Shown in pieces: positions 896 to 57,980 of a DNA stretch of 64,000 nucleotides. A program made the translations under genes and the position numbers. The stretch's first letter is position 1. Each line of letters opens with the position of its first letter. Below the pieces are notes generated by a model. That model ran no database searches and was not told the origin of the DNA. It saw only the letters and a list, made by a program, of their open reading frames with translations. The DNA is taken from positions 122,264,001-122,328,000 of the forward strand of contig NC_135805.1 in the NCBI RefSeq assembly GCF_964213995.1, in the 5' to 3' direction. The DNA comes from Mustelus asterias (taxonomy: Eukaryota).

Positions 896-1029
896 ATAAC
901 TTGCCACGCTGTGGAGCATTGGAAAGCTTGGTGAATGACATGTCTGATGAAATGTGGAATGAACGTGCAATGAACAGAATCAGTGCAATACGCTTCTTAG
1001 ATGACGACGATGATGACGATGAAGAAAAG
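896..1029 (+). CDS. LRRC1: LRRC1 (Lano) penultimate canonical coding exon
   Basis: Acceptor ttccagcag| and donor AAG|gtaatg. Encodes (D)[44 protein letters not shown], closely matching the recalled human LRRC1 segment [33 protein letters not shown]. Ends in phase 0. Confidence 0.93.
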
Positions 1030-1159
1030 GTAATGGATGAGGAGCTAATTTCCATATGGTGCAGGAATATCTTTTTCAATCAGTCAAGGAAACCAATGAT
1101 GTTTTCCATAAGTCTTCGATTTCTTTAATCCTTATATAGTTATTATTTAATACAGGCTA

Positions 1160-2770
1160 TTGGACTAGACGAGATTGAGGTTAATAAGGAGGAGGTGTTA
1201 GCAATTTTGGAAAGTGTGAAAATAGATAAATTCCCTGGGCCGGATGGGATTTATCCTAGGATTCTCTGGGAGGCTAGGGAGGAGATTGCAGAGCCTTTGG
1301 CTTTCATCTTTATGTCGTCATTGTCTACAGGAATAGTGCCAGAAGACTGGAGGATAGCAAATGTTGTCCCCTTGTTCAAGAAGGGGAGTAGAGACAAATC
1401 TGGTAATTATAGACCAGTGAGCCTTACTTCTGTTGTGGGCAAAGTTTTGGAAAGGATTATAAGAGATAGGATTTATAATCACCTGGAAAGGAATAATTTG
1501 ATTAGGGATAGTCAACACGGTTTTGTGAAGGGTAGGTCGTGCCTCACAAACCTTATTGAGTTCTTTGAGAAGGTGACCAAAGAGGTGGATAAGGGTAAAG
1601 CAGTTGATGTAGTGTATATGGATTTCAATAAAGCGTCTGATAAGGTTCCACACGGTAAGCTATTGCAGAAGATACGGAGGCATGGGATTGAGGGTGATTT
1701 AGCGGTTTGGATCAGGAATTGGCTAGCTGTAAGAAGACAGAGGGTGGTAGTTGATGGGAAATGTTCATCCTGGAGTTCAGTTACTAGTGGTGTACCGCAA
1801 GGATCTGTTTTGGGGCCACTGCTGTTTGTCACTTTTATAAATGACCTGGATGAGGGCGTAGAAGGATGGGTTAGTAAATTTGCGGATGACACTAAAGTCG
1901 GTGGAGTTGTGGACAGTGCGGAAGATTGTTGCAGGTTACAGAGAGACATAGATAAGTTGCAGCGCTGGACTGAGAGGTGGCAAATGGAGTTCAATGCCGA
2001 AAAGTGTGAGGTGATTCACTTTGGAAGGAGTAACAGGAATACAGAGTACTGGGCTAATGGTAAGATACTTGGTAGTGTGGATGAACAGAGAGATCTCGGT
2101 GTGCGTGTGCATAGATCCCTGAAAGTTGGCACCCAGGTTGATAGGGTTGTTAAGGTGGCGTACGGAGTGTTAGCTTTTATTGGTAGAGGGATTGAGTTTC
2201 GGAGCCAGGAGGTCATGTTGTAGCTGTACAAAACTCTGGTGCGGCCGCACTTGGGAGTATTGCGTACAGTTCTGGTTGCCGTATTATAGGAAAGATGTGG
2301 AAGCGTTGGAAAGGGTGCAGAGGAGATTTACCCGGATGTTGCCTGGTGGAAGATCGTATGAGGAAAGGCTGAGGGACTTGGGGTTGTTTTCGTTAGAGAG
2401 AAGAAGGTTAAGAGGTGACTTAATAGAGGCATACAAGATGATCAGAGGGTTAGACAGGGTGGATCGTGAGAATCTTTTTCTTTGGATGGTGATGGCTAGC
2501 ACGAGGGGACATAGCTTTAAAGTGAGGGGTCACAGATATAGGACAGATGTTAGAGGTAGGTTCTTTACTCAGAGAGTAGTAAGGGCGTGGAATGCCCTGC
2601 CTGCAGCAGTAGCGGACTCGCCAACATTAAGGGCATTTAAATGGTCATTGGATAAACATATGGATGATATTGGAATAGTGTAGGTTAGATGGGCTTTAGA
2701 TTGGTTTCACTGGTCGGTGCAACATCGAGGGCCGAAGGGCCTGTACTGCGCTGTAATGTTCTATGTTCTA
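1160..2770 (+). mobile_element. 5'-truncated CR1/HER1 LINE (subfamily A), RT domain with stop and frameshift
   Basis: ORFs 1195-2223 and 2180-2683 carry PGPDG, NYRPVSL, GVPQGSVLGP and FADDTK. Has the CR1 3' UTR (gggccgaagggcctgt) and a (tgttcta)n tail. Confidence 0.95.
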
Positions 2771-56897: not shown

Positions 56898-56989
56898 GGT
56901 GGAAATGATCTTTGATGGTGAATTTGGCGATTGCTGCTGGAACCAGCAAGGCTTGGACTGTGATGAATGACTGAGCGATTTTGAGGAGG
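56898..56989 (+). pseudogene. Decayed exon equivalent to the SCRIB GVSFDQANNLLIEPARIEEEE exon
   Basis: Acceptor tatcccag|GGT. In that frame LLLEPARL occurs at 56931-56954 but is surrounded by TGA stops. Donor-like |gtaaaa at 56990. Confidence 0.5.
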
Positions 56990-57890
56990 GTAAAATAAAA
57001 TTACTTACACTAGAAACAACATTTCATAAAGTAGGAAGTGAATTGCATTACAGATGTTATGCAAGATGCATATCCCTTTCAGGATAATTATCTAGCTAGC
57101 TTTAGGTGAGTTTGTTCAATGATGGTGAGACAATATTCTCACAGGCAAGGTTTCACATTTTAATGTTTACTTTTCTAAATAAGGAGAAATAATTACAAAT
57201 CAAGCCTGATTTAGAGAAGCAATGTTTAGCGAGTATACTGTTTATTTCAGTTAGGACTTTCTAACTTGAATTCAAATTCCATTATAATTCGCTGGTTTAT
57301 ATACATTTCTTGACTGAATATCACTTTTCCACAAACCTTTTAAAGCATGCACCTACCTAGGTAAAACAGTAAGATGCGTATTTGTGACAAATAGGAAAGT
57401 TAAACTATGATTGATGAGGTGCATAGCCCCATAACGATGGCCACTCAAACAGGATACAGAGGGTGATAGATCAGCCCTCATTACTTCATTCAACTAAAGC
57501 AGGGATTGGTATACTACAGTGCTTTAAGAAGGACTTGACAAACTGGTGAAGGAGAGTGACTTTGGGACATGTTAGGGTTACAGGTTAGTTAAGTTTGTCT
57601 AGTTATGCATCGCAGATGACACTTTTGACTCACTCAGGAATTAGTGCCATTGATGGCTGGGGTGGGTGGTATACAAAGTTTCACTGAGGAGTCAATGGGC
57701 TAGATATAGATTAGACTAATATTAATTCTTTTCTCCTTCTGTTATGTTTGCATTCTCCCCCCCCCCCCCCCCCCCCACCTCACTTTCTGGGGAATCTGTG
57801 ACCACTGGTATTGCAGCTGTGTGTAAACTCTTCACAAAATACATTATCAAAAATAGCGCTAATGCTGATTGTGTTCTCTTTTTTTTAAAG

Positions 57891-57980
57891 CTCAATATTA
57901 CTGTACGCAGCCAGATGGGAAGTCTGGGGATCAGCATTGCTGGCGGGAAAGGGTCGACTCCATACAAAATCAACGATGAA
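57891..57980 (+). CDS. Scribble-type PDZ1 N-terminal exon
   Basis: Strong acceptor ctcttttttttaaag| and donor GAA|gtaagt, 90 nt, phase 0-0. LNITVRSQMGSLGISIAGGKGSTPYKINDE aligns without gaps to recalled SCRIB LTLTILRQTGGLGISIAGGKGSTPYKGDDE. Confidence 0.92.

Follow-up and report, generated by a model that had tools for sequence, protein, structure and literature searches.

LRRC1 (LANO) is described, in the relevant passages of two papers, as a LAP family member without PDZ domains (PMC6234904, PMC12731447). What, then, should be made of a shark LRRC1 gene that is followed, on the same strand, by exons in Scribble-like order that include the start of a PDZ domain? The window considered here, by which we mean the whole 64,000-nt stretch analysed, comes from Mustelus asterias (assembly GCF_964213995.1, here G000; contig NC_135805.1, here C5, 122,264,001-122,328,000). 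Positions above 64000 continue the window numbering along C5 (C5 base minus 122,264,000), and the analysis covered 314 kb on C5 together with 350 kb on a second contig, C2. The reading that we favor, with a probability of about 0.78, is that a single ancestral gene, a second Scribble, lost PDZ2-4 and broke apart, and that what survives of it is LRRC1, the PDZ exons behind it (the PDZ module) and the muscle gene MLIP, which comes next, with LRRC1 spliced to the PDZ through an internal donor in a relative of this shark.

The boundaries that a first-pass annotation had proposed for three exons downstream of LRRC1 all hold (Table 1): each exon is open, in phase 0 and bounded by AG and GT, and the canonical gene does end at 10120, with a TAG stop. 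Openness alone is weak evidence, since such windows also arise by chance (the non-repeat part of 10200-64000 contains six AG..GT open windows of at least 213 nt, two of which are the linker exons), and it is splicing evidence that decides. In run X1, from a close relative (exons ~97.5% identical), a 2003-nt contig bridges 50912 to 53291 with GT..AG ends; its loose ends, 27 letters before 50698 and 30 letters after 53536, are identical to window 10053-10079 and 57891-57920, respectively. The resulting junctions (10081-50700, 50912-53291 and 53536-57891) are those that had been predicted, and the GIFIS-type exon expected next begins 80 bases past the window end. The contig is of a length that would fit if the rest of the exons followed up to 74850, shortly ahead of an AATAAA at 74865, and its start lies 30 letters before the first base that distinguishes the spliced from the read-through form. 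Because an assembler starts a contig like this at a fork (given what we take to be its word length), both the short and the long LRRC1 forms are probably present in the X1 sample. That the long isoform is real we consider almost certain. A 160-nt contig from a second run, X2, ending at 53536 was not counted: its 13-letter loose end opens with CT, as the next exon does, before running into what we presume, from its resemblance, to be library adapter.

Taken by itself, the long isoform is a database-known model, as the first-pass annotation had allowed that it might be. The joined downstream exons correspond to residues 473-896, and the window exons together with those just past them to residues 427-896, of the 896-aa RefSeq protein XP_078069401.1 (“LRRC1 isoform X1 [Mustelus asterias]”, here P0007); the LRRC1-joined long form is modelled in RefSeq for five sharks. 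The N-terminal part of this RefSeq protein model carries an LRR array by the Pfam LRR families, and the exon encoding RRATPHP aligns with that of SCRIB (54% over 28 aa); Pfam reported no LAPSD model match on P0007. The proposal of a second PDZ-bearing LAP protein at the LRRC1 locus stands insofar as the long isoform has a PDZ, but it has one PDZ only, a count within the LAP-family range of zero, one or four C-terminal to the LRRs. A literature search, with the LAP phylogenies of Saito 2001 and Santoni 2002 outside its scope, turned up no account of an LRRC1 with a PDZ; what has gone unreported is that LRRC1 and MLIP are likely the products of fission of a second Scribble. In some long LRRC1 models (P0016, P0463), PDZ exon c is skipped or the model ends ahead of it, so that the PDZ is truncated. 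Among the sharks and rays that have it, the acidic terminal exon of the long form shows 56-80% identity, and it gave no SCRIB match.

The PDZ itself is closely tied to SCRIB PDZ1. In the long form the domain is completed by exons b and c beyond the window, and Pfam matches it at E 5.7e-18 over model positions 8-80 of 81, and the likeness of the 90-nt exon to SCRIB PDZ1 noticed at first pass holds up: SCRIB PDZ1 chains in the PDB match at E 6e-8, with LGISIAGGKGSTPYK in common, and are the best single-domain PDB matches of the PDZ. Pfam on the three window exons alone gave no PDZ match and one chance MIT match (E 0.06), and a PDB search with the short C-terminal exon gave no match. Compared within the same genome, the two genes divide the domain identically, with exons of 90 and 78 nt, a third exon that starts VNG, and phase 0 throughout. 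In a tree, the PDZ groups with SCRIB PDZ1 against PDZ2 at 100/100, its position among the PDZ1s not being fixed. Against shark SCRIB PDZ1 its identity is 60% and against the bony versions 58-60%; the shark and bony versions share 80-88% with each other. Across the seven elasmobranch proteins compared, the PDZ is 83-93% identical, exceeding every flanking segment in each. Class I PDZ specificity goes with a GLGF-type loop and a His at the start of helix B; the domain here has an SLGISIAGG loop and HHEAV, both aligned to SCRIB PDZ1. Ancestral retention of this PDZ is, in our judgment, very probable. Chains in the PDB that bear the name “Leucine-rich repeat-containing protein 1” and have a PDZ (8boj), which we take to be placozoan Scribble (the search did not confirm this), scored below SCRIB PDZ1 and were not used.

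The idea that the ancestral Scribble-like 3' half had been kept intact fails, as there is only one PDZ in 250 kb downstream, and no trace of PDZ2-4. A PDZ2-4 profile run over 314 kb with stops read as X returned the PDZ1 exons only (next match 3.8 bits), and a motif scan also gave none. The suggested SCRIB linker-PDZ1 order stands for the PDZ, exon by exon, but the linker exons are Scribble-like by position only and do not significantly resemble the linker of SCRIB (at most 1.2 bits; 0.5% by hhalign). The post-PDZ exons likewise show no significant homology to SCRIB. True SCRIB, whose separate location the first-pass annotation had asked to see confirmed, lies on C2 with four PDZs. Judged from sequence, the LRRC1 locus is not the SCRIB orthologue, having one PDZ and not four, and no WRAAR box having been found there. 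At the SCRIB locus (C2 ~2,617,700-2,705,800), only SADH3 was found; the SADH1 and SADH2 exons were not found there, and may be lost, diverged or in a 200-N gap.

How LRRC1 came to its PDZ-less form is suggested by the donor at 10081. The SCRIB counterpart of the 9962-10081 exon is 138 nt long with donor CAG/GTCAGT, in phase 0 in both genes. Since the LRRC1 internal donor corresponds to that of the homologous SCRIB exon, the last 12 residues of the short form are most simply read-through into an old intron; we infer that this is the ancestral Scribble donor and that the PDZ-less state arose by intron read-through. Use of the donor yields the 896-aa LRR-LAPSD-linker-PDZ protein, as in X1 and the RefSeq models. 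Where the donor is ignored, the sequence shows that 12 codons of intron are read before a stop, giving the familiar PDZ-less form that ends in TSV; polyadenylation-type signals (AATAAA/ATTAAA) lie past that stop at 11238 and 11611. The splice choice would toggle the protein between a class I PDZ-binding tail and a PDZ domain of its own. The TSV tail presumably serves in a partnership with DLG1. In the portion of one study that we draw on, the known partners of DLG1 include LRRC1 (PMC13290907). Because PDZ-less LAPs were seen only occasionally at adherens junctions, according to the pertinent section of another (PMC6605793), the long form is predicted to be recruited there as Scribble is.

The missing tail of the second Scribble would be MLIP, whose origin from a Scribble tail by fission we regard as probable. 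An MLIP-only profile over 115 SCRIB proteins singled out a bird SCRIB isoform (P0143) through the block GRET-x-TKPGVI-x-NPF, and the whole MLIP profile (A1, without SCRIB) scored 41.4 bits against it (E 7.3e-6 when scaled to 1.84 billion sequences). Aligned by hhalign, MLIP and the SCRIB tail reached 94.7% (E 5.6e-8), with three control pairs at or below 0.5%. A block profile, chosen after the match was seen, scored 41.8 bits, whereas 2000 local shuffles reached 5.8 at most and 115 reversed SCRIBs no more than 0.5; the reciprocal SCRIB-block profile reached at least 12 bits in 251 of 311 MLIP proteins (reversed, 0 of 311). In 664 kb of G000 DNA, the SCRIB exon was the best non-MLIP match (20.0 bits; next 7.3). 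A degenerate TKPGVI pattern, likewise chosen after the fact, occurs at six places (control three), of which only those in MLIP and SCRIB follow AG and continue to NPF.

Exon structure points the same way. The shark MLIP and SCRIB exons (129 and 126 nt) both begin TRPGVI right after AG, in phase 0; bird SCRIB isoforms skip segments ending at GRETRF and at a 14-residue micro-exon, and MLIP has the same two borders, after GRETKY and after a 15-residue micro-exon. The SADH consensus Y-[KR]-X-[FL]-A-A-[ILV]-P is given as spectrin-binding in a paper whose main text makes no mention of MLIP in the parts seen (PMC4350421). Its strict form is present in 114 of 117 MLIP proteins, human included, and in 86 of 131 in a second set containing many fragments. 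A literature search found no report of MLIP-SCRIB homology, the papers that name both being expression or methylation studies. A profile search of 1.84 billion representatives gave 222 proteins at E 0.001; among the best 150 of the 222, which the results cover, none of 131 new proteins had a PDZ or LRR, and a SCRIB would fall at ranks 151-222.

Because motifs, exon borders and the SADH consensus are common to MLIP and SCRIB, the most likely origin of LRRC1, the PDZ module and MLIP is one split duplicate. SCRIB homology is found in head, PDZ and tail, in order and on one strand, with one ambiguity in SADH order; downstream of each locus, in the same orientation, lies a FAM83-family gene (at 122.79 Mb of C5 and 3.35 Mb of C2). 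Identities and FAM83 synteny fit a duplication before the jawed-vertebrate split, with the tree node left open by a tree that has no outgroup. The duplicated Scribble would have lost PDZ2-4 and acquired both a stop through read-through behind the LAP-specific region and internal promoters before the tail, and elasmobranchs would have kept the PDZ as a bridge between LRRC1 and MLIP.

Evidence for such a bridge comes from annotated models. Of the 15 elasmobranch species in which the PDZ module is present, five have it joined to LRRC1, five have it joined to MLIP and six have it as a stand-alone unit; one species has both LRRC1-joined and MLIP-joined models, its MLIP model holding only the PDZ end. 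Models in five other elasmobranchs, sharks and rays, indicate that the exon after the PDZ can splice onward into MLIP, always at the same PDZ-MLIP junction. Given that the branch exon ends in phase 0 and the MLIP exon at 144318 starts in phase 0, the modelled join is open in Mustelus asterias too. The existence of a full-length LRRC1-PDZ-MLIP transcript is nonetheless doubtful in our estimation. For the SADH motif, the predicted partners are the CH1 domains of beta-spectrin or alpha-actinin, and we lean slightly toward MLIP binding spectrin in this way. Still less likely than the full-length transcript is the complete picture, in which MLIP would be the severed tail of the second Scribble, still anchored to spectrin/alpha-actinin by SADH, in sharks and rays still able to splice LRRC1-PDZ-MLIP as a living fission intermediate. 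The stand-alone module (P0012-P0015, P0019, P0033) is misnamed in public annotation, as DLG1-like, PTPN13, lap4 or uncharacterized. As to range, the long form may be wider than sharks, because a 114-member LRRC1 cluster (825-aa representative; a lead only) and a 66-member cluster of 365-aa PDZ proteins in the Atlas lie near the module, the former by structure; in the homologue search for a bony-vertebrate range, the 120 of 5483 matches listed were crowded by SCRIB.

Several observations weigh against a split second Scribble. The RNA status of runs X1 and X2 is a tool's guess, no listed run being on record as RNA, and X1 is a single study, available as contigs only. The linker is weakly constrained, because six of the nine listed X1 differences in the linker exons alter a residue (none breaks the frame). 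The GRET part of the match occurs in 1 of 115 SCRIB proteins and the TKPG motif in 9 of 115, seven of the other eight scoring 13.6-22.4 bits on the block profile, short of significance at library scale. Searches of the genome with single exons, run both ways, found the query exon and one chance match only, with no cross-detection; the Pfam MLIP model (PF15274) matched none of six SCRIBs; the Atlas gave no SCRIB lead for MLIP; and a SCRIB-tail profile at the LRRC1-MLIP locus gave only the SADH exon (8.0 bits) and no WRAAR box. Neither the GRET exon, the micro-exon nor SADH1/2 was found in this shark's SCRIB, in a region that has the 200-N gap. The MLIP SADH is most like SCRIB SADH2 (hhalign 18.8%), which lies after the block, yet it is placed like SADH1 (1.2%). 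For most of MLIP there is no match in SCRIB, a PDZ is absent from all 10 MLIP models of this species, and among the models compared none joins LRR, PDZ and MLIP in one protein. The PDZ tree, with no jawless or invertebrate sequence in it, leaves open whether the copy predates the shark/bony split.

Alternatively, the module may be a later, elasmobranch-specific copy of the SCRIB PDZ1 exons, inserted between LRRC1 and MLIP and then taken up by both genes. All module matches are elasmobranch (among the best 120 of 5483), 248 MLIP-type proteins, mostly from bony vertebrates, have no PDZ, the linker exons are unlike SCRIB, and the PDZ has a long stem and an open tree position. Against this, the PDZ is about as far from shark as from bony SCRIB PDZ1, which are much closer to each other; the module also stands in the expected order and strand, behind a SCRIB-matching donor and ahead of a SCRIB-tail homologue found in all jawed groups sampled, and the structural nearness of the Atlas LRRC1 cluster is a further lead. 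We hold this explanation to be quite improbable, and give the same low weight to an independent MLIP gene with shuffled SCRIB tail exons or convergent motifs, its PDZ-MLIP models being read-through noise. In the latter's favor, similarity is confined to ~55 residues and one motif, SADH also occurs in the unrelated ABLIM and dematin (PMC4350421, in the part cited), MLIP has its own first exons, and the single-exon, Atlas and Pfam MLIP-model searches were negative; yet three motifs at near-identical spacing together with two common exon borders are hard to obtain by convergence, a shuffled copy would have no reason to land on the same strand right behind SCRIB's own paralogue, and the PDZ-MLIP junction is modelled identically in five shark and ray species.

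A different kind of doubt is about usage and does not conflict with a history of fission: the module might mainly be a separately transcribed small PDZ protein, with the LRRC1 join as minor read-through. Stand-alone models of 280-397 aa exist in six species and the donor at 10081 is non-consensus (GTCAAT), but those models start at varying internal methionines, like truncated predictions, while the only contig seen starts inside LRRC1's exon and five sharks have an LRRC1-joined model, which makes this improbable, if less so than the two preceding explanations. A misjoin of LRRC1 and true SCRIB in the assembly, which the first-pass annotation wished to see checked, has next to no probability: the four-PDZ SCRIB is on C2, the spliced contig and models of 15 species agree with the window, and a 200-N gap on C5, 100 kb past the window, lies downstream of the entire PDZ module, with no support for a misjoin found.

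As in LRRC1/LANO, the window has that gene's last two exons and the PDZ-less short form, but the long isoform here carries a PDZ. With SCRIB (PMC6400555, PMC4350421 and PMC10626209, in the sections relevant here), the locus shares LRR-LAPSD-linker-PDZ1 order, PDZ1 exon structure, the SADH motif, the GRET/TKPGVI/NPF block and the downstream FAM83-family gene; it differs in having one PDZ instead of four, an unalignable linker, no equivalent of exon 16 before the PDZ, no WRAAR box found, and a tail annotated as a gene of its own, 73 kb further along. Erbin, Densin-180 and LET-413, the one-PDZ LAP proteins, have the same LRR-LAPSD-linker-one PDZ architecture, but the PDZ here is of SCRIB-PDZ1 type by sequence and exon structure and is not C-terminal. 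MLIP is flanked by LRRC1 as in amniotes (PMC3103349, PMC11240681, in the portions cited; PF15274), and differs from its descriptions in its homology to the SCRIB tail and its strict SADH consensus. In those same portions it is described as an amniote innovation without similarity to other genes or known motif (PMC3103349, PMC11240681), the 2024 review still presenting it as an amniote novelty (PMC11240681); databases list MLIP for sharks, rays, chimaera and bony fishes.

If true, the fission history would explain both LANO's loss of PDZ domains, via read-through of an ancestral splice donor, and the origin of MLIP, hitherto without known homologue or motif; it would also add a PDZ-bearing LAP protein to cartilaginous fishes and provide a vertebrate gene fission with an intermediate still transcribed. 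The SADH match points to a testable function of MLIP in muscle, predicted to be spectrin/alpha-actinin CH1 binding.

Table 1. Features of the LRRC1-PDZ-MLIP locus, in window numbering (a slash in a donor marks the exon end)
Feature	Position	Strand	Details
LRRC1 penultimate coding exon	896..1029	+	134 nt; matches P0007 residues 427-472
LRRC1 last exon, short form	9962..10120	+	stop TAG ends at 10120
LRRC1 last exon, long-form version	9962..10081	+	120 nt; donor GAG/GTCAAT; phase 0; X1 contig loose end
Linker exon 1	50700..50912	+	213 nt, 71 aa; phase 0; AG/GT-bounded; open
Linker exon 2	53291..53536	+	246 nt, 82 aa; phase 0; AG/GT-bounded; open
PDZ exon a	57891..57980	+	90 nt; phase 0; AG/GT-bounded; length and phase as SCRIB PDZ1 exon a
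Intron leaving the window	57981..64000	+	continues past window end
PDZ exon b	64080-64157	+	78 nt, as in SCRIB
PDZ exon c	68878-69159	+	282 nt
Branch exon	70751-70843	+	93 nt
Terminal coding exon of long form	73879-74031	+	
MLIP exons	105472 to 270172	+	same strand as LRRC1
MLIP exon joined to branch exon in other species	144318-144371	+	phase 0 start
MLIP SADH exon	216940-217008	+	
MLIP exons homologous to SCRIB tail	237101-237145, 243996-244040, 250773-250901	+	

A large Ser/Pro-rich exon of MLIP (214516-216297) contains a QLSLLT.IL..G stretch that is conserved from sharks through teleosts and takes a variant form in tetrapods, and that gave no SCRIB match. Within the window, the last intron of LRRC1 contains fragments resembling long interspersed nuclear elements at 1150-2780 and 6660-8250 (family judged by eye), and the long intron that follows the gene's last exon holds a long terminal repeat element at 35349-40395, with two terminal repeats of 299 nt lying 4748 nt apart and an interior rich in GC and CpG. 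The identity of its two terminal repeats suggests a recent insertion.

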